Shown here piece after piece: positions 14,096 to 63,348 of a stretch of DNA of 64,000 nucleotides. This stretch comes from Amoebophrya sp. A120 (taxonomy: Eukaryota > Protista > Dinoflagellata). The notes beneath the pieces were generated by a model. That model did not search any database and was not told where the DNA came from. It saw nothing but the letters and a program-made list of their open reading frames with translations. Position 1 is the first letter of the stretch. Every line of letters begins with the position of its first letter. The position numbers and the translations under genes were made by a program. The stretch is from positions 10,771,655-10,835,654 of the forward strand of contig CAJINV010000004.1 in assembly GCA_905178155.1 (NCBI GenBank). Direction: 5' to 3'.

Positions 14096-15083
14096 TATGG
14101 ATTGCAAATGTTTTTGGGCGGTCGGAAGCACAGCAGAGCGCTGTTATGTTGTGTCAGTGTGACCCAGATGAAGGTCCGGCTTGTATCGCACGTTTGGCAG
14201 AGAAGATGAAGGTTTCTCAATGCCTAATCGGCACGACAAATTCCTGGTGTCGGTGACAAGAGCGGGAAACTCTTGCTGTCCATGCATGACAGATTTTTGT
14301 GAAATGCGCATCACAGGAGCTTTGCATTATATGTAGTGAGGTCACGAACGTTCTAATCTAGCGGTTTTTTTGACAGGCAGTGCGCAAAACGACCGGCAGT
14401 TATCAAGCGGGCGGAAGTGTTTTTGGGCATAAAAAATTTTCAATTATCAAGCAGCCGGGGCTTTGCCGTCAAACAAGCCCGAGCGGATTCTATCGATTCC
14501 CGCTTGATAAAACGACGCAGGGGAGCCGGCAAAAGGGGCGCCCTTCTGAGGCGCCCACCGCCTTAGTTTCTGGCGGTTTTGGCCGCCCAAAAAGGGGCGC
14601 TCAAAAAGCAGCAGTCCGAAAAAAACAGCGAAGCCGCATAGTATGGGCCCCATTTTGGCCCACATCCGAGCCGCCCAAAAGACGCCACCAAAATCCGCCA
14701 TCTCAGAGGCGGACTTAAGGCCAGAAGATGAGGCATCTTAACAAAAAAAACCAAAAGAAACAAAGTCAGCCAAAAGCAAAAAGCGAATCCGCATGCTATT
14801 GGCCCGATTTGGGGGCCCATGGGGCCGACCCGGGGGTGGGGCCTGGCGGGGCCATAGCATGCGGGGAAGGTTTTTCGATTCGAAACCAAATGGAGGCCAG
14901 TTCTGGATCGACATTTTTAGCGACCGCCGTGCCGTCGTGCATAACATTACTCACGATGGCACGGTGGGCAGAGAAGTCGCTTCTGTTTTTAGCGTGAAGA
15001 CAAAAAAACCGCCATGACCTCACTACCCCCGCTGAGGCGGCTATTATTGGTTCTAGACCCAGAGATATTTGCAATCGTGCACA
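14096..15083. mobile_element. Family A introner-like element carrying a nested insertion
   Basis: TATGGATTGCAAATG... / ...TTCTAGACCCAGAGATATTTGCAATCGTGCACA; perfect GTCCG duplication; host transcript unclear. Confidence 0.7.
14333..15026. mobile_element. MITE-like element nested in the family A copy
   Basis: Inverted ends GTAGTGAGGTCA..GCGGTTTTTTTG / CAAAAAAACCGC..TGACCTCACTAC; no clear TSD. Confidence 0.55.
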
Positions 15084-15223
15084 GTCCGTGGCACTGTTCG
15101 TCCTCCGCCTACCACTTCATCTGGCGGCCCAGGCAACCTGAATGACCATCCACGATAGCAGCCCTTGCAGCACGAATTCCTCGGGATCCACCGTTGTGGT
15201 GAACAAGTAGTACATAAAGTAGA

Positions 15224-18200
15224 ATGAGTGGCGAGGACCCTCTTTCTCTCCTGAAGGCGGCCAAGCCCCGTCCTGCCGTGCCTGCAGTGGGCGGGTGCCC
15301 GGCGGGCGCCACGATAACACCAGCGAATGCTGGTGGCGGAGCTAAGTCCACCATGTTTACGGACTCTTTGTTCGATCTAGATGACGTTCTCGGTGACAAA
15401 CCCGGCGCCGGACACTATCATTTGTAAAAACGTCGTCCCTACTCCAGATTTTTCATGCAAATCTGCATGCTGGAGCTGGGCTCGGCTGTCACTGTCTCTC
15501 ATGCGCAGCCCGATGAGGAGTCGTTTCTAGTGGTGTTTTGGAATTTGTACTGCTATAATCTTCACGTCGATAGGGTGATGGATTTGTGATGCCGCTTCTT
15601 TAGGCGAGCACGACTCCTTACACTAAGTGTCCCGATTTGTCATGCGGAGTTCACAAACCTTTCGTTTCTGATTTGTGTAAGCAAAGTGCCCATCTTGGTT
15701 GACTCTGGGGCGCGGACGGTTTTGCATAGGATAGGTGCCAGCTGTTTGGCACCACGACAACGCATCCGGCCGACGCGAAAACCGCGGACTACCTGTTTGC
15801 CACCGCTGCCCCGACGACAGGAAGCGCAAACTCACTGTTCGGGGCACCAGTCGGGATGACCACGACTGCGCCGGTGGCCGGTGCTTCAGCTCCTGCGGTA
15901 GCCTCCAACCTCGGCAGTGCCACAGGCGCCGGGGCGGGGCTCAAGCCTTTGTTTCCCGCTGGTGGATCTTCGTCCTCTTCCACCGGGCGAAATGCAAATA
16001 AGAACGCCAGCATTTCTATGGGAATCTCAGGGAGGATATCGCCAGAATGAATGAATGAATGAATAATGTTTTGCACATGCAGAAGTAAGGGGACACAAAT
16101 TCCAGGCTTTGGGACACGATTTCTAAGCGGCGCATGTGAAAATTCAATTTTCTTGATTCAATAGATTGAGTCCCCGGAGTGGTTTATAGCAACGAAGAAG
16201 CGCCTTGCCATGCGGTTCCAGCGACTTCATACTTGCTGAGCCACAACAGGCTTAAGCACAGGCTCAATTTCATGCCATGCAACATAGCCAAAAAGCGCAT
16301 GACAAGTGTATCATTCCACTTCGTAAGTAAGTTTCCAACCTGACACAGCCATAACCTCCTCATCGCTTTTTGGGGACTTTGATGTGGACTTTGGCCTCCC
16401 GACGAGCAGTCTACCGGCGCCGCCCCCCGTACCGCACAATCCGTCAAACATATGCATCGGCGCAGCGACGTCTGGGTTTCGGTCTGGAAACTTGCACGCA
16501 CACTTGTGATGCTTGATCTGACTTTGCAGCGCAGCAGACAAAAAACTGTGTTCCATGAGCTGCAAGAGTGGCTGCCCACTTGATAAAAAGTAAGTAAGTA
16601 TTTGTACCGAAGGAGGGAGACAGGATTACTCTCGTGCGGACTAGGCCTCCTGCGTGTAGTAAAACCTGTGAAGAAGTAGAGTTCGTTTGTGCAGCTGAAG
16701 GCCGAGCTGCATTGGCATTGCAGATCGTCTATGTGCTCGTCTGTGTCCGATAAAGCAAGGGGCCGCATGACCAGCCTTTGCACTTTTCCAGCCCCAGACG
16801 CACAGGCATTTGCAGTGTATAAAGCAGTTCGAGCGACAACTTCCTCGACTCTTTCGACTTTCTAGACCCGCCCCCGCCTGCGGTTCCGGCACTGCATATG
16901 ATAGTGGACAACTTCATCCCCTGCTCCCTCTCGGTTAGAGCATGCATCAAAAGGTAGCATGGATGATTTTGAACCTGCCTGAAACCTGCTCATGCAGCCT
17001 CTGCGGGGCAAGTTCCGGCCCGGAGTGAAGGTGTACGTAGGAATTGGTATTTTGTTGCATCACCACAAAAAAAAATGACTAAGGGACGAGAGTAGTTGTT
17101 GTCCACTGTTATGATATAGTCGCCCAGTACGACCACGCTTGGAGGAGCTCCTGGGGCGGAATGCGGAACGGTAAAACATGCCAACACCTCCAAGAACCCG
17201 CTGTTTAATGCAGGCGGAGGGTCCTCATCCAGCACCGCCAACTTGCTTGCCTCGGATGGTCGTGCAGCTGTATCCCAGGAAAAAGTATTTCAGTTACACC
17301 TTTGCTGTAGCTTCAGCAATACAAAGTTGTTGTAGAAGAGTGAGAAAACCAAAACGTGTAAGAATTATACAGAGGTTGCTTGTCTTGCTTGGCTTCTGGC
17401 GCAATGTGTATCTGTATTAACACTTTTTTCTTTTCATACTACATCGGCTCGTCCACCACGGCGGCAGCCCCACGGCTGGGAGAGCCAGGCGGCGCACCGG
17501 GGGCACCCCTCTTTGCTGGCAAGGGACCGACCGCCGGTCCGGGTCGCGTTCCCGGTGGTGGGGGCCACCACCACAAGTCCGGATCTCGGGGTATGTTCGG
17601 CGGGCTGACCTCGCTCGCAAGTTCCGTAATGCGGCAGGGAGAAAAGATGCTGCAGCAAGCCGCGGCCGCCATGCCCGAAAACGAATTCGAACAGCCGTCG
17701 GGCGTCGCGGGGGCTGGATTCGGGCCAGACGCCGCACTGCCTTCCGGGGCCGCCCCGCCAGCGAGTGGATCCGGGGGCGGAATGTTTGGCGGCACGGCCG
17801 CCGCTCTCCCAGCGCAGCAGGGCGGCGCACCATCGGGCGAGACCAGCTTCTTGGCGTCCGGCAGTGCCTTCCTGATGAACAAGGGACCCGTAGCAACTTC
17901 GCTCGGCGGACCGGCGGCTGGTGGCCTTGTGTACGAGCCGCCCGAAGACCTCTTTGAGCTGTATAGAAGCGCACTCAGGTGTTACACATTCAGCGGTTAG
18001 AATGAAACTAACTATAAAGGAGATCATGCAAAAAGACGAGCTATGAAATATAAAAACGAAAACCTGGCTAGATTTAAATGCCCTAATCCCGTCCACCGGT
18101 TGAAAGCGGATGACAACTTAAGTAGTCCTGGAGCCTGAAAGAAGAAGTGCACTGTAATCCGGCGCAATTTGTACTGCGAAAACCGCAATAAAGCGCGCTC

Positions 18201-21200
18201 CTTTTGCTCTGCTTTTCATGGATGGCAACGGCCTTCCAGATGCACACTTCACTGTAACAGTTAGGATTTTTGCAACACCTGAGGAGGCCTCCATAAGCTG
18301 CCGGACGCGTACCGTTTCTGGAGACCGACCGTAGCGTGGTCCGGTGACGCGCACGACTCCCCCGCCTCCCGCACTGCTGACGGCCTGCGGCGAAAAGCTG
18401 CGTCGGGGACTGCTGCGAAAAGTTGGACGGCGACCGACCCGCTAGTTTCTTTGCTCGCCGGAGAGCAGATTTTGTTTGAGGTCCCGCGTGGAGGAGCGAC
18501 ACCCGCACCCGGCGCGGCCACGAACATAGCAGCGTCGTCGACGCCGCTGCAGCACGTAGACCCTAGCGGCGGGATCAAGATGGTAGTGCCCACCGTATTT
18601 CCCTGCCCCTATCCCTGCAAAAAGCTGACGGTGACCAACTACCGTCTGCATATGCAACTGAATGTCGATAGCAACCTGCTTTTTTCGGACGGCCACTGGA
18701 TCTTTTGCTCCGGCGCAGGACGTATGGATTGCAAAAATGTCTGGGTCTGGAACATTCTAAACTTGTGATGCTGTCTCTGGATTCTGAAAAAAAATTGTAT
18801 TGCATGACCAGCAAGAGGACTCCAGTTTGTGCTACACGGAGAGGGCATTTCTCATGCGGTAGAGGTATCACAAGGCGCTCCAAAAATCTGTGATGCTACG
18901 GCATGCATCACAGACATCACGGGTCATGGAAAATATGCATGACAAATCTAGAAATCTTCCAGACCCAGACATTTTTACACTTGATAGGACGAGGCCCTGC
19001 GCAACATGCAGGAGCAGACAGCAGTGCGGAGGGGGCCGTGGCTGCCTCGGGTGCTGGATATCAAATGTAAAAATGTCTGGGTCTGGAAACTTGTGATGCT
19101 GGGTGGCGTCTCATGATGAGGCCACATATGCTGGCTCAGCATGACAAGTTTCTCAGCTTCTAGGTGTTGCCTATTCTGCATGACAAACTGCGTTTCTGCA
19201 TCACAGAAAAATGGAGCTCTTGGGTAGCGTGCATGACAGATTTAAGAGTCATGCCAGACAAGCATGACAAACATGCATTCTCCAGACCCAGACATTTTTG
19301 CACTTGATACTGGACCGGTGCCACCGATTCCGGACGGTATCCTCGGAAACCAAAGCGTGCCCACCTCATCCTTCACTCTAGCAGAAACGCATGACGAATT
19401 TGTTTGGCCCGAAGTGTAGTCGTGATCAGCTGCTATCAGCGTGGCGGCAATTCACTTATTTTGCCACGCGAAACGCAAGACCAAGATTGCAAATTGTGCT
19501 TTTACCAACGAATTTATTGTAAGTACGCCAACCACTCACTCTATCTTTTTTGTAACCCTGATTAGAAGTTACACAGCCCACAGACAACCTAAGAAAACCC
19601 AAAAACTAACTCGTGCACTATTTTTTTCGGGCTGCGCTAGCGCTGTCGACCACACGTTTAAGGCATGATGAAAGCAACAATTTTGGGGGTGGGTACGTTA
19701 TTTTTGACCAGGACACGCGAATTTACTGCCTCGGTGCAAGATGAGACAGCTCTTCGCGGGGTCACAGCGTCTTCATCTCCCTCCAACGCCTTGACAAGTA
19801 CTAGTTCAGCGAGCAGTTCTTCCTCCCTTCCCGCATGGCTACACGAAGCGGGGCTCCTGTCCATTCCGTGGGGCGCAGTACTCAGCATATGCACTGCAAA
19901 TACCTAGATCAACATCTGCGTCGGGGCACTATTCTTTGAAGCGTGCCATCCCTAGCGCAGTGACAACATTGAAGTACTTAGAGCTATGTACGTAAGTATT
20001 GGAAAATCTAAGTCGACCGTCCTATATTAATGTTGTCGAGAACGAAGTACCATTACGAAGAAATGAGTGTGTCGAGATCTGGCATGGGAGAATCAGGAAG
20101 ACAAACTGCCCGCACCTGGCCAGACGCTAGATGGCTGCTACATATTTGCGGGTGATAAAGCATCAAACAGTACGATTCCAGTGGGGTAGCCCGTGTAAAA
20201 ACTGCGCGTAGTCATGAAGTGCGTTCTTTTCGCGCTTTTGCACTAAGCAACAACCTGCTAAGACACAGATGTATGATGCTGAAGAAGAACGTATACAACA
20301 GTAAGTAGTATGTTTATGCTATATGGAAATCTAAATGCACATGAACATTATCGATAGGCATGACTGCAAGATCGGGCGTGCAGACGTGTGCCTCGTCATG
20401 ATTAGCTAGTGTGGCCGCTGGACCAAGCCGCTAGCTTGCCCTGATCGGCTGCAATGAAGACCCTTCCTCATAATTGGGCATTCTCCAGCTGCACGTTCCA
20501 AAACAAACATGATCGGGCAGCCATTCCCCGGGCAGGATCGGGCTGGTGAAGGGGGCCGCAGTCACGGTGGGGAGGTGCGGGCTTTCGCATGGGTTAGCCC
20601 TCGCCCGCGGGGGCTACCATCCGCATGTAGCGCAGGGTTGGGATGAGCTGCTAGTCAGTGTTGGATCTCTTGTTTGGGCATGTTTTATTGCCGCGGGCAG
20701 CCGCAGCACTACAGTGCCGGGAGGTGAATTTCGCGGGAGTGTCTAGATGATGAGTAGCTGGGGCTCGACTTATAATCTCTACGAGTTGCATTGCATTGGG
20801 GGCCAGTGGGGCCAGCAGGCCTTTTTGTCTGTCGCACGCTTCGGCTATGGGGATGCACCGGCCTGGAGCTACCTTGCTTTTTCGGCCGGCTACGTTTGGC
20901 CAGGCGGTCTCCCCCCGTCGGCCTGATGTCAGTATTACCCCTCAACAGCAAGGGTGGGTAGGAATTCTTTTCCTTTGGTTTTCGTCTTTAATGCAGGTCG
21001 GGCTGGGATTTCTGGCGGTTTCTATCTCTATGTGATTGTCGGGTTTGTGAACGTCACAACTAGGCTTTGGCGGCTTGAGGGGGACCGACTGGCATTTTCT
21101 CTCTATCGCTTTCGGAGGGCCGAGTTCGTGCTCGCTCCTTTTCCCAGGGGGTTTTGCCCCCTGGCGTTTACGGTAGTTTTGGCCTTGTTGTTCGGTGGGG

Positions 21201-24200
21201 CCGAATAAGTTGTTTTTGGAACTGGCTTCACAGCTTGGTAGCTACAAGGGCGGCCCGTCAACAACTTTACTTTGCGGCGAGAGCCTGCGAGGGGGCACTT
21301 AGCGGAATCGGGGCACCCCGGACAAGGCGAGGGGCTGTGGCGTCGGCGCCGCCCTTCAGCAGGTGGCAGCATTTGGTAAGAGTGCCTGAGGGCGGGCTCC
21401 CCTACTCGTGTTAGCGGGTCTAATTCGATAGCGGGATCTACATACCCGCCGGATAGTAGGTTAACGGCCGGGCTCTTATCGGTTTGCACGGAGACGGATA
21501 TGAGTGCGCTCAGGTCTGGCGTGGCGCTAGTTTCTTGGCCGGGGTTTGGTGTTCGAAGGGGCCGACGCCCTCAGAGTCAAACTCAAAGGCGCCAGTCTAC
21601 TACTCTGGGGGCCTAGGTATCAGGTGGGTCAGTAGCTTTTGGACCTGGGGGCGCGTCCCGCATCATCATATACGATGCCCCTCGGCGCATCATTTTCGAG
21701 TAAGTGACGGAAAGGACTAGACTTATATGGAAAGGGCTAGCAGATCCCTGGTAAGCTAATGCAAGGCGGCACGACTGGACCCGCATTCGAGGCGGGGGTC
21801 GTGCCATGGAAAATTTCTTTCGATCCCACCCACCCACCCGGTGCGCTGTTTCCTCGCGCCCACGCGGCTTTCGTGGTGACAGAGGATTCATTTTGGGAGG
21901 GGCCTTGAGGCATCCCAGTAGGCTGTCTCAGCGGTGAGGGACCGAGACGCCCTTGCCCTCTCTCCTCCGATCACGCCATAGGGCGTGTCGGGTGGTTGGT
22001 TCAGATTGATAGGACGATAGGAACGGAGCGAAATGGGACCAGGCGCATTCTCCAGCTGCACGTTCCAAAACAAACATGATAAAAGCAAGATTATGAACGT
22101 AAATCGCTGTTAATGGCAGATCAAAGCAGAATGGACCGATTCTGGTGGGCGAACAACAATTCTTATTCGAAGCAGAAGGCACGATTTACATCGTGAGTAA
22201 TCGCGATTACGTCGCGATTTGCAACAAGTTCAAATTCTTACTTTACATTTTTAGTGCTTTTGTACCACTCTAAAAAGCCTAAAGATTTTGATTCAAACAT
22301 TCACTTTTTGTCGCTGATGAAATGAAATCATTTTTTGCCGTAACTCTTCTTGCAAATTTTTTCAACCCATTTGTACTTTTCGGCTGCTGACTGTCCGACT
22401 TCTTCTTTGTATGCTGGCGACTCGGGATCCAGCTGCTTGTAACTCGCTCGCACTTCGTCTTTTTTCTTGATCAATTCCTTCAAACGGGGAATCTCGCTTT
22501 CCAACTTTTCCTTCAGCCGCCGCAGGTGTCTTCTTTTGTCTTCACCCACGCGCTGCCGATCTTCACCCAACTTTCCTGGTGGTCTCGGGTGGATCCGTTG
22601 CTGACGATGTAACTCACGCTGATACTTTCGTCTTTCTGGTTCTTTGTCTCTTCTTCTAACTGCTGAATTTGTTCCGCAATTGCTGTGGTGCTGAAACTCT
22701 CTTCGTTGGAAAGGTTCGCGTCGACGGTTAGTTTAGCAACTTCGCGAGCAAGATCTTCGACTTGCTGTTCGTCCTTTACCCGTTGTTCCTGGTCGTGGTC
22801 GACCGCTTCTTGCTTTCCAGCCTCACCGACGGAGAGAACTGGTCCACAAGCCGCAGTCTTGGGCTTGATGAAGACCCTTCCTCATAATTGGGACCAGGCG
22901 CATTCTCCAGCTGCACGTTCCAAAACAAACATGATAAAAGCAAGATGAAGATTATGAACGTAAATCGCTTTCTTAGCATTGTAATTGCGAACAGCACGTG
23001 GAGGTGGACGACGACGAGCAGTATTTTTTCACGGGATACCGCTACAAGGAGATTCTGAAAGACATCAGCACCATGATGGGTGGTTTTTCTGACATATGGA
23101 TTGCAGATATGTCTGGGTCTGGAAACTTGTAATGCTAAAAGTGAATGATAGAGGCACTGCCATACGCAGCTATGCATGACAAATCTTTTGGCTGCCATGT
23201 GCATGTCTTACGTATTCCGCATGACAAACTGCGTTTTTGCATGACAGGCAAGAGGGCCTTTTCGTGCCTATGCAACACAGATTCTCGAGTCATGCCAGAC
23301 AAGCATGACAAACTTGCAATCTTCCAGACCCAGCCAGTGGACATATTAGCACGTTTAATCTCTCTCTACATAGTGCATTCACGTAGTTCTCTTTTATTTT
23401 CTTTCTTCAAAAAGTTCAAGTCGTTCTCTTCCCCGTGCTGTACCAAGGTCTTGTTTCCAGACAAAACACCAGACATATTTGCAATCCATACGAAACTTCA
23501 GGCCTGTCGGCGCCGTATCAAAAGGAAAACTCTACCGCCTGGCGATACGCAATAGAGGGATTTTTTGATTGCAGAGTGCGACATATGCAAGTAAGAGTAC
23601 GTACTAGACTTGAAGAGGAGCCTTATCTTTTCTTGGTAGTGATGCAGTGTGTAAGTAGTCTGAGCCTCTGCAGCTGCAGCTTAGCCGGTAGTAGCTTCTA
23701 GCGCAGTAGCGTAGTCGTCCGGTCGTTGGTTCGGCACGCTAGACGCGCCTTCTGTAGGGTCTCGCAGTATTGGAAACCTCTTCTCGACGCACAGCACGAG
23801 AGAAAGCCACTCTAGCTCTGCCCGTTTTTTTGTATGCAGCGCAACCAGAAAGAGGACCGAAGAACAGCAGGGTTGTACATCTTGGTACGCAAATTTGTGA
23901 TGCACTTGCAAAAACATATAAGAGCGGGGTAACAAATTCTGACGAGTTGTGGCCTTCCCACTTCTCACCCGCCCGGCCGGGTGGGTGACTAGTGGGACGG
24001 AACCAGGATCCTGACCACGAGAACGGCGAAAAGCAAGATCCGGCCAGCTGGTCATCCGGCCAGCTGGTCAGGATCCTGGTTCCGTCCCACTAGTCACCCA
24101 CCCGGCCGGGTGGGTGAGAAGTGGGAAGGCCACAACTCGTCAGAATTTGTTACCCCGCTCTAATAAAATCCCTTGAGTACTACTACGTGTGCGATATAAT

Positions 24201-27200
24201 ATGAGGAAGGAGTTGTAGTTTTCCACGCCATACGCCGGGGCACACTTTCAGCAAGGCACAGCTGGCCACCGATGGAGGCGGTTGCTGGAAAATCGCCACG
24301 AAGGACCTGCGTGCCTTCTACCTAGAGGACGTGCCACCGCAATTTGGTGCGCAGCTGCAGGAGGCCTTTCGCAAATTCGCGAACGCTGCCTACGGTCCGG
24401 CAAGCCTGGTATCCAATTGAAAACGTCAAGGGTTGAAAACGTCTGCTCGGAGGACTTCGAATTCTTTCATATGGTCAGCAAGTTTCTAGCTTTGTATGAT
24501 ACGACTAGCAAATGCAACCAGAGTGAAGCAAAAAGATCTTCTTTGAATCTCCATCGCATCTTTTGACGTGGATAAGTATGCGCTTTTTATCTCTTGGCTC
24601 CTTTGAAATCTATCTGGTGGTGGTTTTCGTCCATTTATCAGTTACAGCAAGAACACGCCAGTAGGGTATAGACATCACATTTGTTGGAACTAGGCAAAAA
24701 TGTCCTGCAAACTTGAAAGAGCATGCCATGCGCATTCCCTCGTCCATGACTGAATTGGATTCACTTTTGCATGTAAGTCGATATAAATCGACCACTTGGA
24801 TGCAAGTACAACTTACAAATAAAATGTGAAGAGACCCCGCCGGCCGCGTTTTTCTGTGAGAGACGCATTTTGTTTTCACCAAGACGGACGAAGGGACAGA
24901 CGATTAAACCGCGTTTTCAATTTGATGTCTCTTCGCGTTCGCGCACTGCAACGGCGGCCTCGGCGCTACCGCCGGTTTATGAAGTGGAAAGAATTTAGCT
25001 CTCGCTCTGCCACAGTTCTATGTATGTTTTTCGTTTTTTCTTCCGGGATACGATCTCCAAGCGAAAGGTACTAAACTTGCTCACTGGGCGGGCAAGTTTT
25101 TTTTTTTCAGATTCGCTGACGCAGGGCAGGGAAGAAAACGAAAAAGAGATTGATGATTATTAATTTACCCACTGAGGTGGACGACGAGGGCAAGGTTTTT
25201 CCTAGGATTTGCGGGGACAAGTATCGGCGACGGGGCGACCAAGGATGGCTGGCATTTGTACGACCCCCTGGCGGAATATGGTATACTTTAGTTATAATTT
25301 TTTCAAAAGCAAATGCAAAGGTTAAGAAAGGTCCGGATCGATAATGGTCATTATTTTTTCTTTATCTTTTGCAGTACCTACTTAGCTCTAGCCAGCGATA
25401 AAGTAAGAATGTAATAAATTCCAGGTCGCATGTTATCCTCCGTGATATAATCGTCCCCACGACCACCACGACCCGCTGCAAATTAGGTACGAGGAAGATG
25501 AAAAAAACTCTGCTTGGCAAGAAGCTCTGTGAGTTAGCATGGTTTGTAGCGGCATATATAATATCAAATAAAGCTCGACTTGGCTTAGGCTTTCTTCTTT
25601 ACTCTGGTTTTCTAATGCTATGCAGGTCGGGTGTTGTCGTGGTAAGGTCGTTTTTTCACAGGATGCGTGGGCATCGATATGACGGAGGGGCCGGGCGACT
25701 CACCCTGGCGGCTGTATGCCCTGCAAAAGCAATACATACTTGATGCGGGCGGCTTTGGAGTGCCGGAATGGCATAAAAGAGAAAAGCAACCATGTATAGA
25801 GATCTGTCATTTTGCATTTCTTGTGGCTCATTCGAGCGAATCGCAAGAGGTCTGGAGGTTTTGCGAGAAGACAGAAATATGCATGCCCGAGGGGAATTTC
25901 TGGAAAGAAGCAGCAGGCTTTTACGCTCGCCAGTAGCGGCAGTTCTGCTTCTGCAGACCAAGACCGCGATAATTAAACTGGCTTCCAGCACGACCCAGCA
26001 TTCATCCATCGTGCCTTGCAGATCCAGATTCACCTTACGATGAGAATGAGAAACGTCAATATCATATCGCACGGCCAGTTCAGAAGGAGTATCCGCTATA
26101 ATCATAGCCCAGATTCTTCTACTTGAGTTTCTTTTACGTTTAACTGCAAACCCAATCAACATCCGGTATTGTGCTAATTTGCAATGTATCAAACGCAAAT
26201 AGGTGTGTTGGAAGAATGCAGATAATTGATACTTCTCATGGTGCAGGTTTTGAATCTGCCAAATAAAGGCCTGAAATGCACACATCAGAGCAGCACAAAT
26301 TCTACGGAGGCTTTGCCATGCGCTGTCTGCGTGAGAAGAAATGCCCCCTCCTGGAAGCAAAGAGCGCATTTCTTTTGCCGTGCCGGCTATGCAAGACAGA
26401 CTTTATTTGCCTATTCCAGAATCCGCCATCACAAGTTCGCATTCTTCCAAACCCAGAAATCTTTGCAATCCATACAATGCATAGGAGGTCGAGCGTGAAT
26501 AAGAGCTACCAGCTCTGCGAGAGCTACCCGCAATGGCTGGTGGTGCCCAAGTATCCTGTGCAAGAGTTCGATATCGTGCTCGCGGTACTCATCTGTGTCT
26601 GTCCGATGCAGCATCTTCACCGATTATTGCCTTTTTGCAAGAAGGTTAGGCTTGACAAGTCGCATTTTACTTATTAATTTGTTCTTCGATTCCGAGAATA
26701 GAAAGTTGTAGTAGAGCTGCCAGTTGTTTACGTTTAGTTGTTCTACGTAGCGAGAAAGCACTGCTCGATAAGTATTTCTTTTGCACTGCATACCACGCGA
26801 GTATCGGACCCGGTGCTGCTGGCGGTGAGTAACTACCGCAAGAAGAAGCGGATCCCCTCTCTGAGCTGGTGCGGGGTATTCAAGAAAAAAACATTGTAGG
26901 TGTAACTTTTTTGGAGGAACAGCATTACAAATTTGTCTGGCATGACAGCAGAAACATGTCATGCGCAGATAGTACGTGAAAACGCCCTGTAATGGACCCT
27001 ACGATGCATGCCAAGCATGACAGACGCAATCACTTTGCATGTTGCGCATCACAAATTTACACCAACAACGTTTTTTTCTTAGATACGGCGGCCCCGCGCT
27101 GCACTACGCCTGCGTGTTCCGCTCCTCGCAGCCATGCGACGGGCTTTGGGGCAACAGTTCCGAGGCGGACGAACGCCTCCTCCGGGAAATTGCGACGGGG

Positions 27201-30200
27201 AAACAGATATCCGCAGCAAAAGCAAAACTAACGTATTACTCATGGTGCGCCTCCACAATAAAGCTGCACAAGAAACTGAAACGAAGAAAGTAAGTAATTT
27301 AGATAAGTATTAGACTAGAAGAAAAAAATTAAAATTTCACAAAATTTTTACCGAGAAGACATGCCCCTGTCACAGAACAATATGGGCATGCAGGTGCATG
27401 AAACTGTAGACGATATCAGACCTGCAGACCCACTCATCTGCACGACTTTCTATGTGAGTACCTGTGCACAAACATGATATGGCTACCGTGTGTCTCCGCG
27501 CGTCGATGGTTTTGCGCTGGATAGCCAAATATCAAATGCAAATATGTCTGGGTCTGGAAGGATGCAAGGTTTGTCATGCACATTTTGCATGACTCCTGAT
27601 GTCTGTGATGCATGCCCTAGCATTAAATATTTCGTGAGGGCTTTCTGATGCCTAGACCGCATGAGAAATGCCCCCTCACCGTGGCAAAATCTGGACCGCT
27701 TTTGCTGCTCATGCAATACAGATTTTTGTAGAATCCAAATGCAGCATCACAAGTTGCATCCTTCCAGACCCAGACATATTTGCAATGCATACCAAATGGC
27801 CTCTCCAAGCCGCTCTTCGTCCTGGATCTTCGTACGCACAAATCCGCTTTGGGAAACAAGGCCGGGGGCGGCGGGTAAGAAACCATGAAGCAGCGAATAT
27901 TATTGCACTATATTCTTCTCTTCCTTGCGATCGCTTTACCTTTACTTCAAAGTACTTAATACGATGCCATGAAGTGTATTTTCGCACTAGGTTGATGCAC
28001 AAGTGAGTAAAAATCTTTCCGGTTTGTTGTTTGACAAGTACGCATTACATTTAGTATAGCTATAGCTATAGTCGTCTGGTTTAGAAGTCTCGACGACGGC
28101 ACTGGTGTAGTAACTTGTGATCGCTACAGGTATGAGGACTACTCCTTTTGTCAGCTGGAGTTCGCGTATCAGAGTGCCCAACTCCCCCTCCCTGTCCTTA
28201 TTTGTCGCGCAAACAGCGAATCCAGATCAAGTCTTTGCATTGTTCGCATGGCAGGCTCGGACCGCCAGAAGAGTGCTGCAACCTTGTGTAAATTCGTCTT
28301 GCAAATGCAAATAATAAACCTGCTCTCTTGCCGACGCTTGTTCCATTCCTGTGGATGCCCTTCTATAAATAAATCAGAGGGAGGGGCAGTTGTGCACTTC
28401 CATATCGAGGGGATTCCGAACATACACGCAGTCCGAGACTCCTACGAGGTACGCAAGGGAAAAAAAGTGTGTACTTAATGACCTATGTTGTACTCATGCC
28501 ATGGTCGGAGAACGTCGCGGACGTCGATGCACGATTCCCGGCCGATTTTCAGCCTATGCACATTGCATGAGAAACTGAAATTATGCAAATTTTTGATATG
28601 ATTTGCCAGATAGATGTGAAGGAAAAGATGTATTTGACGTGAAGGAGAAAATCGTGCTGCGAGCGTGGTGCCCCTGTCGCGCTGGGGAGAATATAATTGC
28701 AGTCTTTTTCTTCGAAGACGGTGTACGTAGCTGTATCTGTATGTTGCTCGGTACTGCTGCAAAAGTGCAGAGTTAATAGAGGATGAACACGCTTTTTTCC
28801 CTTTGGATACGAGAAAATGGAGAAAGCGGTGTGTCGCATCGCCTACAACCAAGCGGGTTCCTGTATCATATCGAATACACGGGATACAAAACAAGTTGCA
28901 GATGAATCGATGATGTAGAAGTACTATGTATGTGAACCTTTTTGATGCTTTTTGCTTTTGCTGCAGAAGATGCTATTGTCTCGGAATGATGATAGATTAT
29001 GTTTCTTTTTCGGTCTCTGCGGACGCCTTGCGGATCACGATATGCACTGCAAACATGTAGTCTGGGCCTTGTGATGTGATGAATGAGTGAATGTGGACTT
29101 GTTGTGCGCTTACTGCGAATGGTTTCACGAGAACCCGTAACGCATGAAGGAGATAATAAAAAGCCACGCCTCCGCCACAACAATTGTCATCATTTAAAAC
29201 ACAGCTTGTCGTGCTGACGCGCAATTCGACTAGCTTCTGTTCAATGGGATACACGTTTAGAATATCGTGATCGTCCCGCCGAAGTAGAAGTGGGTATTGG
29301 TATGCGATGGAGTTGTTCTCCCGCGCTCATCTCGCAGGAAGTACGTACTATACTGGGATTGCAAGAATAGATGAAAATGTCGAGCACTCCATTTCCAGAG
29401 GGCAACCCGACGAAGACATGTTTGTAGTGCATATCTGATTTCCATTTCCGTATGATACTCGGGTACACCGACGTGGGAAACAGCCTGTGGTTTGAGAATC
29501 TCAGCCTGATCCTGCAAGCGGCCGCGAACGTTGCGTGGAAAATGCGGCAGAACCGGGCCTGTCTGGTGCACTGCAGCGACGGCTGGGTATGCATCAAAAA
29601 TATTGTAGCTCCAAGTCTGGATTTCGCTGACCACTAGCGGAGGATCAAAAAAAACACGTGCCTAATTATTAATTTTTATTAGTACATGATTTGGATTCAT
29701 GTGACAACGCGCAGCATCATCGAAGCATCAATTATGATCGTTATGATCGTTGCATTTTTTCCATTAGCAGCAGGGGCACCTAGTGTAGTTGTCATGACGG
29801 AACACGTAAGTACGTTTACGTAGCCACGTGGCTAGGAGGGTTTCAAGTCGTTTACCGTGGCTTCCTGAAGACGTGAAGACTAAATATACCCTGAATATTA
29901 AAACGGTAACAAGCCCGATGAATGCGACACGGAAATACAAAAGACTTGAATTACACTGGAGAAAAACGCAACTTCGGCACATAAATCTATGCAACAAGCA
30001 CCATGAAAGAGCCTCCTCCAAACCTTGAATTATTGAGCGATGAATTAGAATTCCAGACCTGGAGGACATATTTACACCTGATACGGGGACCGCACCGCGC
30101 AAAACACGACGTTGGCCATGCTCAGTCTCGACCCATTTTACCGCACGATCGAAGGTATGTTATTTGCTTGTGTACCTATAGGTGGGACTGGGAGAAAATT

Positions 30201-31730: not shown

Positions 31731-33074
31731 GTTCTATCCCACAGAAAAGTTGCTAGTGCAGCACGACCTTATCCGTTCACGTATGAGTATGCTCAGACAA
31801 ACAGAAAAATGAAAGAGCATGCTAATGCTATCACCTCGTGCTGGAGCGGCCTAACCAGGACCATGCTCCTGTATTTATTCAGCATCTCCTCGGCAAAAAT
31901 GCTGACAGATCCACTTTTTGCTTGTTTTCAACAGCATGCGCGGAGGTCGTGCACGATCATGTTGGTGTGCTACTAGCTTTTTTCTGGGTGATAAATTCTC
32001 ACAGGCACGGCTGAAACTGTGGGAGAAATTCTGGCTACGGTATCACCCACACCTGTGGCTGATGGACCGCTCAACATGATGCAGTGGATAGGTATTTTTC
32101 GATCGGACCACCGGTCCGGTTTGGGCTGCATAATTCCTTTATATAATTGTTCGTAAAAAGGATGCGACGCAGGTAGAAGTACCTGTAGCAAGGACCGCAT
32201 TCTCTCTACCGAATTCTCCCGATACACCCGTAGCTATGTAGACTTTTTTAACAAAAAGAAAAAACTCAAATAAAGATAAAGATGAACGCAAGATTGATTT
32301 GGAACCCCGACAGACGAGACCTTTTAACAAGTATCGCAAAAAAAGACGACACAGACACTGGCATTGAAACTGCTCCCATTCTTAGATATGATGTTGGATC
32401 ATTCATAGCGCTTGGCTTGCCTACGTCCGACACGTCTGTCATGAAGAAGGATGCTCTGATGTTCTGAATTTCTTATATAAGATAAGCGAACAGCTGCATG
32501 ACGACCACGACTTTTGTAAAAGCGCGATCATCAATGGAAATCTTGACAAACGTCGTGTGCAGCATGTATCTTTTTGCGGATCGAAGTTCAACGCAGTTTT
32601 GGTTTTGCAGCTTTTTCTTTATAGATACAACTTTCAGCCTAGAAGACACATGTAGGAGCCGGTGTGTAGGTGAGTTGCAACCACTTACCACGTAGCGCAT
32701 TGAAGACCATTGGCCCGCCGTACTAATCGTTCTTGTGCAGAAAGAACATGAATTTCGATAGAGTTCCAGTTCTACAAACAAAAGCACCGAGCTCCGCAAT
32801 AACTTCTTGAAATGATGGACTACTTTTGCTGGCTTGTACTCACTCCTGGTGATCTACGCAGGATCACAACTGTATCAGGATCATCTCCATATCTCTTCTT
32901 TGTTAATGCCAGGTTTTACGCCATACCTTAAAAGAGTTTTCGCTTTGTTTATTAGAAAACCGCGGCGCACGAGATCTTCATTTTACTCAGATCGATTTGC
33001 TATATTCTAGTGCTACCTCTGAAAGACCTCTTTGACGTTTTTGTTTTGAATTAGAGACGCACGCATCCTTTAAC

Positions 33075-48400: not shown

Positions 48401-51400
48401 TCTGGCAGCTTTGGCTACACACTGCATTGAGATTGGCTTGTTACGTTCGAAGATGGAAGTTTACTGTTTGATGTCATTCATAATTACGGATGCCCCTCGG
48501 CGCATCATTTTCGAGTAAGTGACGGAAAGGACTAGACTTATATGGAAAGGGCTAGCAGATCCCTGGTAAGCTAATGCAANNNNNNNNNNNNNNNNNNNNN
48601 NNNNNNNNNNNNNNNNNNNNNNNNNNNNNNNNNNNNNNNNNNNNNNNNNNNNNNNNNNNNNNNNNNNNNNNNNNNNNNNATGTTTATTTCCAGTCCTAGT
48701 TTCAGACTAGGTTGGCTTTCTCCTGATTTCTCCCGTTCCGGAGAGGGAGAGAGAGTTTGTTTCCAGTCCTAGTTTCAGACTAGGTTGGCTTTCTCCTGAT
48801 TTCTCCCGTTCCGGAGAGGGAGGAAGAGTTTGTTTCCAGTCCTAGTTTCGGACTAGGTTGGCTTTGGATTTCCATTGATTTCTCCCGTTCCGGAGAGGGA
48901 GAGCGAATTTATTTCCAGTCCTAGCTTCGGACTAGGTTGGATCTCTCCTGATTTCTCCGGTTCCGGAGACGGAGAGTGAGGCTATTTCCAGTCCTATTTT
49001 CGGACCGTGTTTGATTTCTCCTATTTTCTGAGGGAAGATTTTACTTTTGTCCTAGCCTCGGACTATGTTTGATTTCTCGCGCTTTATGTTTATATGTTCC
49101 GTTCTGGAGAGGGGACTTTATTTCTACTTCTAGGCCTAGCTTCGGACGAGGTGTGATTTCTCCTGATGTCTAGCGTTCTACGGAGGGGAAATCTTTTTTT
49201 GCAAGTCCTAGTTTTCTCGGACTATGTCGGGCGTTGGTTGTCTTCTCCTGTTTCTGGAGGGAGTGAGTGTGTTTCTATTTCTGGTCCTGGTTCCGGACTC
49301 TATGTTTGACGTCTCCTGTTTTCTTTGAGTCTGGGGCGATGGGTTTCGCCCCAAATCCGGGGGGGTTTGAAACACCCCCCAGATTCTTGCTTTTCGAGTT
49401 CTGAGGAGGGAGGCTCAGCCTTGTTGCTGATGATTTGCGAGTATACCCCTATCCCCTTTGTTCTTGAGATAGTTGGGAATCCATTTCCCCTCGGGGTCGA
49501 TTTTGTTTGATTTCCGCGTCCGGCTGTGATTGAGGAATGAATCTGCGCCCGTTTTCGCATCATTCCCGCGTTTTCTCCTTCTACATCGGAGTATGCCCCT
49601 TGCGCCAGCGAGCGAGTTTCAGCCCTGCTGTCAGGCGGGCTACTTGGAGCAGGTTTGTCGCCACATGTCTCCCGTGCTCGCTGGTGAGGAAGTATCGGCC
49701 AAGTTTCTGCTGTTTCTTCGGTGTTTTTCCACTCTCCCCGCTCGGCGAGTAGGCTGTCTTGGATTTCCACTTGTGTTCCAGGCTCTCCCGTGTTCGGAGA
49801 AGGATTTTAGGGCCTAGCTTCAGGCTACTTTCTGCTCTGATTCCCGGCTTCCGCCGGTCTTGGTTTTATTGTGGGTTTCACTTTATTACCCATTTTTCGA
49901 GGTGTGTGTGTGCTGGCGAGCGCTTTTCTCGCGGTCTACTTGCAAGTTTTGTTCTCTGTTGTATTCGATGAGTGGCGTCTTTCTGACCTTGGTTATTTTC
50001 ATTTCAACCTTGCTCGGCTTTGTGGCACTGGCGGTTTGAATCCGTTAAACCTAAAAGAGGGCAGGCGCGAGATGGAAAGGCTAGGGATGTGCCCGGCGCC
50101 TATGGCGCCGGGGCTTTGTTTTCGCGGATTCTTTTGCTTCCGGTTTCCGGGTTTTTGCCGTCCCTAGCTTCACGAGCCGGGTCAAGGGCTTGAAATGAAA
50201 TGACCAAGGTCAGCGGTGGCGCCCGTTGCGCAGATTTTCCCCCGTCGGGGCGAGCGCTTTCCTTCGAGTTGCGAGTTGCCTTTGGAGGGAATGATCTTGC
50301 ATTATGGGGCCTCGTGCTCCTATTTTGTTTGCCTGAGGTCTCAGGACATTAGCATTAAGTTATTTTCAGGTCCCTGCTACACAGGGGGCAAGAAGTGTTG
50401 CGTCTGTTGTGGGTCCGATTGCATCGCTACGCAGCGATATGCTATGCTATTCCGAGTCCTGTGCCCGCCTTTCTTCGGTCCAGGTGGCGAGGCCGTTCTT
50501 CTTGATGGTTTTCTCAAGTTTCCGGGCGACCTTTCGGTCTGTGTGTCAGAATTTTCCGTAGGGGTGTATAGGCCTCTGCGCCTTCCTTACACAGGGTTTG
50601 GTCTTTTTCTCTCTGATGATGCAGCATTCGCGTTGCATGGAACGCAAAATATATCTCCGGGAGCTAGTCGCAGCTGACGGCTACAATCTTTTAGAGGGTT
50701 CCGGAATCTCTTTCTGTGGATCTTGGTGCCTGTTGGGGTGAGTTTTGGGCGACTTGTCTTCGGAAAGGCTCCCACGCCGAAGTTTCTTTTTCCGTTGGGG
50801 ACACAGGACTTGCACGGGCGTTACGGCCACCGCCACGAGGTCCGTTCTAGTGTTTTGGGAGGTTCGTTTCCGGATAGTAGGTTGGTATGCAGGTTCCCGA
50901 GCTGGGGGCGCGCTCACCCCCGTTGGCTCTTGTTCTTGGTACTCGCTGTTGCTCGATATTTTGGAAGCTATTCTCCAGCCGCAACCCGGCCGAGTTTCTT
51001 GGCTGAGTCCTCTATTATCCGTGTGCGAGCGGTCAAGCGCACTACGTGTCCGAAGTGTGGTAGCAACTTCCCGGGGTTAGTCCTCTCTGTTATTAGGCTG
51101 ATTCTTGGCCAGCGCCTCTGCCACTAGCGTTTCTTCTAGTTCCGGCAGTTGAAAGGATATTGCTAAGGGCCAGTGCGATGGCGCTTGGGTTCGTCGTTTT
51201 GGAGCCTTGTTGGGATGCTGTGTGACAGTCTTTGGCCTCTCAGTCGGTGTCGTCGCGCGCGCCCTTGCGTGTGGGGCGGCTGTTCGGTGCCCAAATTCAT
51301 CTGCAGCGGATGCTGCAGGGTTCTTTGGGCCGCGTTGTTGCGCTGCGTCTCCGCCGGTGGGGTAGGCTCTCCACATGTTAGGTCGCGGGCGCCTGCACCT

Positions 51401-59171: not shown

Positions 59172-59185
59172 CGTAGCCATTTTGG
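59172..59185 (+). other. Relic dinoflagellate spliced-leader-like sequence
   Basis: CGTAGCCATTTTGG is a 14-nt exact match to DinoSL (DCCGTAGCCATTTTGGCTCAAG), in sense orientation about 230 bp upstream of the ATG at 59418. Confidence 0.6.
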
Positions 59186-59417
59186 TCTCCATGACCTTCC
59201 TTTCCGAAGATCAAGACGGCTTCTCCTACGGGACCAGTCCCTGTTTTCAGAAAATATCATTCTCCATTGTGAAGTCAACTTTTTTGTGACGATCGAAAAG
59301 CAAAAGAAACATCGCGATCGCTTCTTGTTTTTCGCAACATGACGTGTGCGGCCTGGAAGTCGCAACCTTACATAACGAAGTCATTTTTTCATTTCCTCGT
59401 TCTTCCAAGTTGAGAGA

Positions 59418-62400
59418 ATGCAGCACGTGCGACCTTTATCCCGTTTTTCGTGCCATCCGCGGCCACGGGCGGCGAAGTTGCTTTCGCGAGATCAACATTA
59501 CAGGTCTGCTGGTTCTCGCACCCGGTTCTTGTACGACGACCTCACACCTGGTGGACGTGCGGAACAAAGGTCCTTCGCGACTGCCAGCGCTAGTAGTACG
59601 AGCGCCGTTGAGCCCAGCTTTCTAGACCGCCATGCCGAAATGCAGCACGCCAACCGTTCCATGCTCCGTCCCTATCAGCACCTGCGACTACATAGTGGCG
59701 ACAGCTTTGGGGCGGTTGGTCCAGCAGGTGTAGCGACAAGCTCTGCGGGTGCAGCAGCTGCAACAAGTGTTTCTTTACAAAACAACCCCTGGTTGCCGTC
59801 GTCCGAGACAATGCCAAAATCCGTACCGCTCGCAATGCCCAAGTTGGTCGTCGAGCCTTCGAGGTCGACAAAGATAAACGCAACTTCTACGCCTTCACCG
59901 GCCGATTGGCTCCGGGAGATGCGCAGTATTCTGGATTCGAGGCTGCACGTGACGGGGGCGATTTTGTTCCGTAACGTGCTCTCCGACAAGTTCGGTTTTC
60001 ACGACGTCACCAGCCAGCTTGGCTATCCGCCGATCAACAGCTACGCCGGCGGGGCCGCGCTGCGGGAGGAGGTGGGAGCCGATGGAACAAAGGCGGAGAC
60101 TGATGATGAAACAGCTCCCGCCTCCAAGGGACCTCAACATCAAGCCGTGTCAGCGCCGGCAGCCGCTGCGGTTTTCACTGCCTCTGACGAGCTGCCAGTT
60201 GTGATATTGGAGCCACACCAAGAGGCGAGCTACATGCCGAGCTACCCGCAGAAATTTTTTCTCTATTGTTCCGTCCCCGCTGTGGAAGGCGGGGAGAGCT
60301 GCGTCACGGACATGCGCGCGGTCACGGCGGATCTCCTGGCAGAGAAGCCTGAGCTGATGGAAAAATTGAAGCGAAAGAAGGTCCGCTACATTTTCCGCAT
60401 GGGCGCGGATAGTGCGGCCTATTACAACTGGCCCAAGCAGCTGGGAAACGGAACGGCGGACAAAGAAGCCGTGGAAAAAATGCTACACGAAAGGTACGTA
60501 TCAAATGCAAAAATGTCTGGGTCTGGAAGAATGCAAGATTTGTCATGCATATTTCTCATGACCCATAATGCCTGGAATGCGTGACCTAGCATCGTAGACT
60601 TTTAGAAAGCTTCCCGATACACCTTCCGCATGAGAAATGCCCTGTCCGTGTAGCACAAACTGCACCCCTCTTGCTGGTCATGCAATACAAATTTTCTTAG
60701 AGTCCGAAAACAGCATGACAAGTTGCAATCTTCCAGACCCAGACATTTTTGCAGTTGATAGTACGTCAATCGCGACTTGCGGACGAACTGGTCCGACAAC
60801 GCTACGGGGCGAGGTTTAGTAAAAGAATTATTGTCCTCGTCTTCTTCGGATAACTCTACTAGTAGAGGTAAATCCCTGCCGCTGCCGGAGCTGGAATTCT
60901 CCTACACAAACGAAGCTTTTGTTGAGCACCCCACGACGGGCGAGATACTTTTCTTCAACCAGGCTGCGGTCTGTCACAGCAGCTACTTCAGCTACCACCC
61001 CGATTGGAAACCGGTCACCAAGTCCGCGACGGTACCCGGAGGTAAAAATCACGAGGACAAGACGAGAGACCACGATGTTCCCCGTTGGATCCGCATTTCG
61101 GAAAACAACACAGCACAATACGCCCCGTTCGACACGTGTTTCGGTGACGGGGAGCCGTTTAGTGAAGATGACGTCAGTTCCATCCGGCGAACCGTCTGGA
61201 AGCACACGATCGCGCTAAAGGCAGAAAAGCACGACTTGTTGGTGTTGGACAATTTGCTGGCCGCACACGGCAGGTTTGGCTGGGACGGCGACAAATTCGA
61301 GCGGAAGCTGCAGGTTAGCTTGATGGAACCGGGGATGTGGGGGCGCAGCGAAAACAATAGTGCGACCACAGAAGTCGAAGAGGGAGCAGGAGAACCTTTC
61401 AAAGAAGTTGCGCCAAATAAACTAACAGCCGAAGCAGCTAGCACCCAGGAAATCAATCTTCCGAGCTCGTCTACTTCCCCCTTCGGCATCTTTCCCGCGC
61501 CGGCGAACGCGGACTCGCCGGCATTACTGCCCTCCCTGCTTCATCAACTACCGGACTTCAACGGGCTGCTAGTTTTCCGGAATGCTGGGTCGGTGTTCGC
61601 GAAAAACCTGCAGGAAGCGATTTTAGCAGCTGCTGCTGATGATGAAAATGGTACAAGGGGATCTTCTGCTAGCGACCCGCCCTCGTCAGTTCTTCTTGCA
61701 AAGGAGTTGTTCGGTCTCGACCGGGCAAGCACCACGAAGTGCATCTTCATTGAGGACGTGGACAACTGCAAATCTGCGTCTGCGCCCTTCGAACTTGTCG
61801 CCAAGCCAACATCTTCTACTTCTACTGCAAGCTGCCCTGACAGCACGACAAGTGATGTTCTTTTTGAGGACGCCGCGAAGAAAACAACGCCACCTTCCCT
61901 CGTGCTGCACCCGCTGCATGGGCGCATGAGTGTCACGAGCGCTGCCTTGGCTGACGCCACCGGACTGGTCCTGAAACCGAAAAATGCACCAGCCACGACA
62001 ATGTTAAAACAAGGCAGTAGTTTTTCTGCAGATAATGCTAAGATCAAACTGCAGCCCAACGACGTGATTCTGGTTGACCGTTTGCTCGCCGACATCGAGG
62101 AACTACCCGGCGCGGCGATCGTCGTGGGAGGGGGTAGCAGCAGCACGGCACCAGCGCGCCACCAGGGTAGTGACATATCAAATGCAAATAGTTCTGGCTC
62201 TGCATGACAAACTTTGTCTGGGAAGTCTGTCTGACAGACTTGAGAGCCATGCTGGCCGAGCATGAGAAGCTTTGCATTCTTCCAGACCTCCCAGACATAT
62301 TTGCTTTTGCAATGCATAGAATGCATATGACAGCGCATCAAGAACTACTATGACGGCACCTGTACAACTATCCTGGTCCGAATCCCGGGCAGATCTCTGG

Positions 62401-63348
62401 TCCAGCGCGGAGAAGTTTACGACCCACGTTACCGAGCACTTTCACCCGAAAAACCCCTTCAACTACGTGCAGCCCTTCAGTCTGCTGTCCTCCCTCGAGA
62501 AGGATATCGAGCTGAAGCGTGACATGGCCCGGGCGCACCGGTTGTTGAACCACTTCGAGCTCGACGAGCTGGTCTGGAACCACGTGTCCGGGCGGTCGTT
62601 TGCGCGGAAAAACCGTTTTTTCATCAGTAACGGGGACAAGACCTTCGAGCAAATGTGCGAACAGGACATGGTCCTGGAGTCGAACGGCAGCAACCAAACC
62701 GGGCAGGTGATCCACGGCGCGGTCTACATGGCGCGGCCGGACGTGAACGCGATCGTGCACGCGCACAGCCCCGCCGTGGTGGCCTGCTGTTGCCTGAAGA
62801 ACGGGCTGGAGATCCTCGATCAGCGGGGCGGGGGGCACTTGCACCGGATCGTGTACTATGACTGGAATGGGATCTCCGACAGTCTGGAAAAGGAGTGCCG
62901 CCTGTTCATGGAATGCGTCGCGTTCGAAAAAGTGAATACAATCATGCTGAAGCACCACGGAGCGCTGGTGCTCGGCGGCACGTATCCTGTGCAAAAGTAT
63001 CGCACTCGTAGTAATTGCATTCATGCATTACACTCAAGGCAAAGAAATCAGCATTACAAATTTAATTTGTAATGCTGGGCTAATTTGTAATGCAATTTAT
63101 ACTAGTGCGATGCTTTTGCATTGCATAGCACGGTGCGGGAGGCCTTCGTGAACTACTTCTACTTGGAGCGACTGTGCGAAAACTGGCTCAAGGTGAACGC
63201 CAGCAACCTGGAAATCGAGCGGCCGAAAGCCGAAGTGGCGCAGGAGAGCGCGGCGTTTTTCGATTTGCCGCAGTACAAGGCGGGGAACAAGGAGTGGGCG
63301 CCCCTTGCGGCGATGGTGCATCGGAACTTGGGTGGAATACAGTTTTGA
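59418..63348 (+). CDS. TauD/TfdA-type Fe(II)/2-oxoglutarate dioxygenase fused to a class II aldolase/adducin domain (about 1118 aa, four exons)
   Basis: GAILFR, PHQEASY, FLYC..PAVEGGES, DLLVLDNLLAAHGR; then WNHVSGR, IHGAVYMARPDVNAIVHAHS, LKHHGALVLGGT|VREAF; all three junctions in frame (3357 nt). Confidence 0.88.
60499..60760. mobile_element. Family A intron element (opposite orientation to the 18723 copy)
   Basis: Family A TIRs; TSD GTACG. Confidence 0.95.
62176..62327. mobile_element. Short deleted family A intron element
   Basis: TATCAAATGCAAATAG / CCAGACATATTTGC..AATGCATA; TSD TGACA. Confidence 0.88.
62983..63127. mobile_element. Family D intron element
   Basis: TATCCTGTGCAAAAGTATCGCACT / AGTGCGATGCTTTTGCATTGCATA; TSD GCACG. 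Confidence 0.93.

Follow-up and report, generated by a model that had tools for sequence, protein, structure and literature searches.

A fixed excision register for the TAT...ATA introner elements of Amoebophrya sp. A120

We examined 64,000 nucleotides of the genome of the dinoflagellate Amoebophrya sp. A120 (contig CAJINV010000004.1, positions 10,771,655 to 10,835,654 of the forward strand; hereafter the window), in which five genes are interrupted by short elements with terminal inverted repeats (TIRs) that mostly begin with TAT and end with ATA. Lying in A120 genes, and having terminal inverted repeats, a direct repeat, several families and non-GT-AG removal from RNA, they are the introner elements described in this organism by Farhat (2021; PMC7789003), and the system is already known. 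Our main finding is that the intron is always the element together with the one nucleotide before its TAT and the four nucleotides after its ATA, a fixed register that we write -1/+4. We posit, with a probability of about 0.6, that a relaxed U2-type spliceosome removes these introns. The register, a strict 5-bp duplication, three protected bases whose pairing partners vary, and a subterminal motif common to different families were not found in print. Literature searches turned up no paper that gives these introns a branch point or a fixed register; part of this may be shown in figures 3 and S19-S25 of Farhat (2021) or in further rows of the Gozashti (2025; PMC12130899) dataset.

The 2021 publication left the splicing mechanism and the mobiliser open, and termed the splice sites "variable" (Farhat, 2021; PMC7789003). 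A fixed register offers a simple rule for tens of thousands of ambiguous junctions and would fix the gene annotation of this genome, while three named bases and one predicted branch position make the splicing question testable, and the search for the transposase gains a starting point in the subterminal motif common to the families. Table S4 of the same paper lists nine predominant A120 non-canonical motifs with T second in all of them, which is expected from the -1/+4 rule.

The cut and the elements it removes

The cut can be placed only where the two flanks of an element differ. Exon queries from the window match two proteins labelled Amoebophrya sp. A120 at 100% identity, P0003 (a myotubularin-family gene) and P0001 (a gene with a PF08216 match). 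Over their 40 element introns an offset of -1 reconstructs both proteins with 0 differences, whereas the other offsets between -5 and +2 produce 8-30 differences in P0003 and 1-10 in P0001. Because these annotations were built from transcriptomes, the agreement constitutes indirect RNA evidence. Orthologues from A25 and from a third Amoebophrya-labelled source, at 53-88% identity, fit the same offset best, with summed BLOSUM62 scores of 75 at -1, 45 at -2 and -3, 40 at 0, 18.5 at -4 and 12 at -5, over the 12 of 24 offset-sensitive junctions that lie in conserved context (flank threshold 7/12, raised from 6/12). The adjacent introns at 27208 and 27530 are omitted from this comparison, and at junction 16451, dropped by the raised threshold, one orthologue prefers offsets of -3 to -5.

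Among the junctions listed, nucleotide-level RNA support covers one gene, encoding a CDK-like kinase; for the other genes the evidence is annotated proteins or reading frame. Record 6 of run X1, a run that consists of contigs only and whose RNA status is a guess, aligns to this gene in three pieces, 40032-40647 (record positions 1-616), 42207-42612 (856-1261) and 43160-44385 (1262-2487), and the -1/+4 model predicts the record coordinates 616, 856, 1261, 1262 and 2487 exactly, one junction being direct (42612-43160) and four following by length. The direct junction belongs to the best-resolved intron, 42613..43159 on the forward strand, made up of one nucleotide, the element 42614-43155 and four nucleotides. 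Its flanks share 0/5 bases, so that sliding is impossible, its ends are CT..CC, and the joining of 42612 to 43160 bears out the splicing in RNA that a preliminary description of this DNA had proposed. Contig piece ends at 34008, 34349 and 31996 are likewise consistent with the -1/+4 cut. In the same kinase gene the entire outer intron 41640-42202, in which another element is nested (41658..41965, with a perfect duplication), is missing from the contig, as judged by length. The raw RNA runs X9 and X10 yielded 66 and 3 matched reads, nearly all partial and on repeats, and contigs of the repeat-rich run X5 pass uninterrupted through elements.

Deleting each element plus 5 nt leaves stop-free frames in all five host genes, as the preliminary description had held. 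A pattern search of metagenome contigs supplied a further sample of 134 loci (557 kb, all from one second assembly, of this strain or another) without overlap with the window genes; by search design it is enriched for young copies of the family that we call A. For 121 of 159 copies in this second assembly, the reading frame is best after removal of element + 5.

Annotated-protein mapping and curation place 49 TAT...ATA inverted-repeat introns in the five genes, with 5 further copies that are nested or upstream; the 34 elements first counted were an undercount. Scanned blindly for TAT..ATA pairs in which 12/16 bases or more are complementary, the window gives 39, against 5-12 per shuffle in 20 shuffles. 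The elements are short (145-560 nt in 44 of the 49) and begin with TAT in 44/49 and end with ATA in 44/49, and the size range and end sequences given earlier are upheld. Intron length exceeds the inverted-repeat span by 5 for most introns of the myotubularin and PF08216 genes; the exceptions, resolved by hand, are canonical introns, mis-registered repeats, an adjacent pair around 27528 and nested copies. GT-AG ends, the mark of canonical U2 introns, occur in just 3/49, in keeping with the non-GT-AG character first proposed, and the host genes also contain 6 GT-AG introns (3 in the myotubularin gene, 3 in the PF08216 gene). Being short and non-coding, with TIRs, a constant target duplication and many copies, the elements have the anatomy of MITEs (miniature inverted-repeat transposable elements), as had been recognised.

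What splicing may read

T+2, A+3 and A-7 (numbered from the intron ends) are each invariant in 49/49 window element introns, whereas their stem partners A-5, T-6 and T+4 show 5, 1 and 5 changes. The contrast of 0 changes with 11 has p=0.001 in the same set that had suggested the idea; in the second assembly there are 6 changes at protected and 18 at partner positions (p=0.023), among the 24/44 variant copies that could be oriented, in a scan that gives 17 pairs on shuffled DNA against 401 in the real sequence. One strand-biased mutation process would not, we infer, protect T+2 and A-7 and pass over T+4 and A-5. All 6 canonical introns of the two host genes start with GTA, which equates T+2/A+3 with the host donor, and the U+2 and A+3 of the canonical U2 donor are present in 49/49 element introns. 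The targets of 200 young copies resemble coding background at all five positions (G+1 in 54, AG in 16), so neither GT nor AG is needed, and a requirement for G+1 or a terminal AG was rejected. In decayed copies G+1 is enriched (20/43 versus 54/200 in young ones, p=0.017), and it is present in 25/49 window element introns.

This pattern is easier to square with the remnant of a donor and with a branch adenosine than with a pure reading of the stem. The element itself would supply the splicing signals: T+2 and A+3 would be the remainder of a GTA donor, and A-7 would serve as branch adenosine, six bases ahead of the 3' cut, while the inverted repeat would merely bring the intron ends together. 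Either orientation would work because TAT is read at both ends, and older copies would drift towards G at +1. Spliceosome structures have G+1 paired with the intron's final G, so that a joint loss of the two would be coherent, and some protists have short fixed distances between branch point and acceptor.

Several observations weigh against this proposal. Among the junctions listed, just one is directly seen in RNA, from a run taken as RNA by guess, and two X1 contigs, at depths of 4.9 and 8.0, keep intron sequence. In the second assembly the asymmetry is modest, and it draws on 24/44 variant copies with strands called by a model and on a scan that admits false pairs. Among young copies neither G+1 nor AG nor A-2 is preferred, and A stands at -7 in just 2/6 canonical introns. 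Branching as close as 7 nt to the 3' end, and within a stem, would call for unwinding. The cognate transposase was found neither in the window nor in the 557 kb of sampled loci. The sections of Farhat (2021; PMC7789003) on the splicing machinery report U1 small nuclear RNA as undetected in either Amoebophrya strain and, in favour of the proposal, the spliceosome proteins as nearly complete.

The preliminary description had the splicing machinery recognise the terminal stem as such, and this now appears doubtful. In its most developed form the idea would have a non-spliceosomal endonuclease and ligase read the terminal RNA stem and cut at fixed distances, as proposed for the nonconventional introns of euglenids (PMC12501133, PMC11282704), where Euglena offers a similar fixed geometry and circular products. 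We consider this unlikely, while noting that intron ends are free apart from T+2/A+3/A-7, that the mean in-register terminal pair probability exceeds 0.3 in 26/44 folded element introns and in 0/6 canonical ones, and that U1 went undetected (PMC7789003). The terminal stem is real in these predictions but not uniform: 18/44 folded introns have a weak predicted stem and nevertheless keep the register. Nor are the conserved bases conserved as pairs, and a stem nuclease would leave aside the coincidence of T+2/A+3 with host GTA donors, the gain of G+1 in older copies, and the 3/49 introns that are GT-AG in identical geometry.

Elements as mobile DNA

Insertion of an element leaves a 5-bp duplication. 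As the -1/+4 cut removes element + 5 nt, one target copy is restored whatever the target sequence or the orientation of the element. In the second assembly 247 of 470 non-redundant pairs have a perfect 5-bp repeat, against 1.1 expected; duplications of other lengths number 7 (length 3), 4 (4), 1 (6), 1 (7) and 2 (8), with 48 of length 2. The strict 5-bp duplication of the preliminary description thus stands, and its count of 16 perfect cases gives way to 15/49 window element introns and 3/5 of the nested or upstream copies.

Clustering sorts 413 elements into 66 clusters, the largest with 163 members, and the window has copies from six multi-copy families, in line with the "at least five" first proposed. 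The type copy of family A (cluster 0, the 163-member cluster; family median 262 nt) is 40654..40906, with a TIR of about 30 nt and a perfect 5-bp duplication, and other window copies lie at 18723, 19059, 23095, 27530, 41337, 46747, 60499 and 62176. Family B (cluster 6) is typified by 35313..35619, of about 308 nt with a TIR of about 58 nt, and includes the copies at 34683 and, nested, at 41658. Across families, the motif TGT[CG]ATGC occurs 414 times in non-family-A elements, against 6 times in shuffles and not once in 14.6 kb of exon. It first appears 31-35 or 41-45 bases from each element end, and is found in 23/49 window element introns and 0/6 canonical introns. Family A is present in both orientations, 21 to 12, in the second assembly, where the host strand was assigned by a codon model that is right for 35/38 on the window.

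Shared ends, duplication length and subterminal motif make one mobilising enzyme class a fair inference from sequence, as had been suggested, and spread would likely be by a trans-acting integrase-type transposase. The proposal in full is that the spliceosome has dropped G+1 and the 3' AG and reads only a transposon-supplied N-U-A and the branch A-7, cutting six bases later; that each insertion by this 5-bp-duplicating class of transposon would hence be a perfect intron whichever way round it lies; and that all TAT families share one integrase-type transposase binding TGTSATGC. Taken whole, it seems to us to fall somewhat short of even odds. No transposase was found among 127 open reading frames (ORFs) of at least 230 aa in the 557 kb of sampled loci, and among 163 family-A TIR matches none has a transposase-like ORF in a scan of the same length threshold, although 13 of the 163 lack a closing repeat within 400 nt. 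Viral contigs do not carry the family-A TIR. The window contains no DNA transposase, as first stated, and only pol remnants of the long terminal repeat (LTR) type, two in number and one with an integrase zinc finger, so that the earlier absence of any transposase holds for DNA transposases alone.

Spread through an RNA or circular intermediate, by reverse splicing or by an LTR integrase acting on copied introns instead of cut-and-paste transposition, strikes us as distinctly improbable. Duplications of 5 bp are common for LTR integrases, and LTR pol remnants lie in the window. Subterminal inverted motifs of the kind present in the elements are, however, typical of transposase-binding sites, copies occur in both orientations, nested in other introns as well as upstream of a start codon, and what moves is the DNA from TIR to TIR and not the excised intron, which includes 1+4 host bases. 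A cognate transposase was found neither in the window and sampled loci nor, as far as the sections on A120 report, by Farhat (2021; PMC7789003), which would suit such an intermediate.

A last reading, the outcome that the preliminary description had named as fatal to its proposal, would have ordinary MITEs sitting in genes that are dead or mis-annotated, or have GT-AG sites close by serve for their removal. It is very improbable and already largely refuted. A frame-preserving GT..AG pair within 12 nt is available to 24/49 element introns and lacking for 25/49, and the contigs that keep intron sequence are set against a spliced contig that joins non-GT-AG ends exactly, annotated proteins and orthologues that fit only the -1/+4 cut, the best-frame result in the second assembly, and published RNA-seq support for 66,565 introns (PMC7789003).

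Beyond the family-B copy already mentioned, the nested and upstream copies are an element before the myotubularin start codon (14096..15083; perfect duplication, GC-rich internal insert), a near-perfect palindromic element with 101-nt arms (23917..24165, in intron 23516-24232), an element in the right TIR of intron 25715-26483 (26187..26474; perfect duplication), and one in intron 28864-29457 (29041..29433). At 27207-27795 a family-A copy has inserted so that it straddles the 3' end of an element intron older than itself, and a single exonic base on the forward strand (27528..27528) remains between the adjacent introns 27207-27527 and 27529-27795; this base may be a 1-nt exon, or the introns may be removed inside-out, and joint removal yields the annotated residues.

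Among the sampled loci, the long TIR pairs of L036, L040, L048, L056, L067 and L077 have host exons and several short elements between their arms, and we read them as cross-pairings and rejected them as long copies. The pair in L040 (2333-8529) spans 6.2 kb of host-like exons and several short elements, bounded by an 18/20 inverted repeat and by a perfect 5-bp duplication, and may be a chance pairing or a composite element. Locus L042 carries, at 5001-5972, a 972-nt family-A element with an internal insert within an RNA polymerase Rpb1 gene, and the elements thus reach core genes. Summed contig depth in run X5 is 1.2-1.7e5 over family-A bins versus about 30 elsewhere, a figure that is not a copy number and that fits a very large family.

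Host genes, neighbouring features and known systems

All host genes lie on the forward strand. The myotubularin-family gene (15224..32079; 1205 aa; PF06602; 100% match to P0003) takes in the exons at 15-19 kb, a correction to the preliminary description. It has 29 element introns (TIR spans 15416-15733, 16017-16353, 16451-16821, 16897-17113, 17271-17438, 17962-18295, 18723-18986, 19059-19309, 19338-19715, 19888-20157, 20187-23038, 23095-23490, 23516-24232, 24410-24927, 24978-25209, 25434-25665, 25715-26483, 26552-26792, 26877-27085, 27208-27523, 27530-27791, 28167-28404, 28450-28809, 28864-29457, 29588-30083, 30562-30847, 30899-31164, 31236-31553 and 31735-31993) and 3 GT-AG introns (25281-25424, 27875-28129 and 30155-30379). 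Its element intron 20187-23038 is 2852 nt long and contains a 66-nt direct repeat in three copies, the ORFs of this intron have no Pfam match below E 0.02, and about 21670-21770 appears identical by eye to 48488-48579 beside an N gap.

The PF08216 gene (33075..38812; 572 aa; 100% match to P0001), which we take to be Beta-catenin-like 1 (CTNNBL1), has 11 element introns (33133-33323, 33518-33708, 33764-34006, 34352-34617, 34683-34992, 35313-35619, 35711-35979, 36100-36557, 36725-36959, 37494-37929 and 38065-38328) and 3 GT-AG introns (35051-35280, 37026-37409 and 38368-38547). In the first of these GT-AG introns a TAC..CTA repeat survives in decayed form (8/14 complementary) with the 1+4 geometry of the elements; the intron is possibly a former element that became canonical. 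The CDK-like kinase gene (39615..44229; 915 aa; Pkinase matches), whose RNA contig coordinates equal the prediction, has element introns at 40654-40906, 40957-41178, 41337-41598, 41640-42202 and 42614-43155. A 911-aa gene without a Pfam match (45411..48430) and a TauD and class II aldolase fusion gene (59418..63348) are predicted from stop-free frames after removal, the former with a family-A element at 46747-47025 and the latter with elements at 60499-60760, 62176-62327 and 62983-63127, all with perfect duplications; removing the latter three unites the TauD and aldolase domains in one 1118-aa frame.

Elsewhere in the window, an open frame running off the left end (2-2158 and 2802-3434, forward strand) matches the integrase zinc finger PF17921 (E 5.6e-5), shows DDE-like motifs by eye, and is likely an LTR-retroelement pol into which a GC-rich insert, at about 2135-2871, intrudes; no longer relatives of this integrase region were found, which is weak evidence. 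On the reverse strand, 10525-13186 is a Copia-type pol remnant with RVT_2 and retroviral SH3 domains. A 2439-aa single-exon ORF (51475-58794, forward strand) has no Pfam match, element or subterminal motif, and degenerate tandem repeats were seen by eye at 48680-49330 beside a 100-N gap.

Among transposons, Ginger elements have TGT..ACA termini, and the window elements differ from them with TAT..ATA (44/49 at each end). In the dataset of Gozashti (2025; PMC12130899), A120 family 38 is entered as a TIR DNA element with "5-bp TSD, TA/TA Termini" (TSD, target-site duplication) and labelled Ginger, a label at odds with the text of that paper, which denies Ginger termini and homology. Unlike the window elements, family 38 is about 810 bp long with ORFs related to Copia/Gypsy (PMC12130899), and no ORF-bearing copy of this kind was found in the window or loci. 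By analogy with this published family we favour an integrase-type DDE enzyme as the mobiliser, at roughly even odds. IS3EU elements end in TAYGG..CCRTA, which resembles family B (starting TATGG) while family A is mostly TATCA, and they duplicate 6 bp (PMC12730594), a length found in 1/470 pairs here; no IS3EU transposase was found in the window or sampled loci. hAT5 makes 5-bp duplications (PMC12730594), as seen here, and domain scans of the window and of ORFs from the sampled loci gave no match to a hAT transposase.

Among introns, those of euglenids (PMC12501133, PMC11282704) are alike in their MITE-like origin, inverted ends and motif at fixed distances from the splice sites, and unlike in having CAG/CTG at +4 and -8, where the window introns have TAT at +2 and ATA at -7, and in the demonstrated importance of pairing, their circular products and their unrelated lineage. 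The introns of Fritillaria borealis (bioRxiv 2025.08.15.670264, PMC11282704) are also MITE-derived and non-GT-AG, and a modified U2 spliceosome processes them; they differ in AG-AN-biased ends and duplicated U2AF subunits, the window introns being fixed only at +2, +3 and -7.

The closest likeness is to the A120 introners themselves, and the novelty first claimed was overstated. The TAT start, a 5-bp example among direct repeats of 3-5 nt, the comparison with MITEs and validation by RNA-seq were already in print (PMC7789003), as were the 5-bp duplication and TA/TA termini of PMC12130899. The sections of Farhat (2021; PMC7789003) that describe the repeats make no mention of a subterminal motif or of the T+2/A+3/A-7 asymmetry seen here. 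They do report TAT-starting repeats in A120 and 29,850 repeated introns in 1954 families, and our elements share with them the organism, the intron-end inverted repeat of TAT, seven variable bases and an A run, the direct repeats, the many families, the RNA-supported non-canonical splicing and the lack of a transposase.

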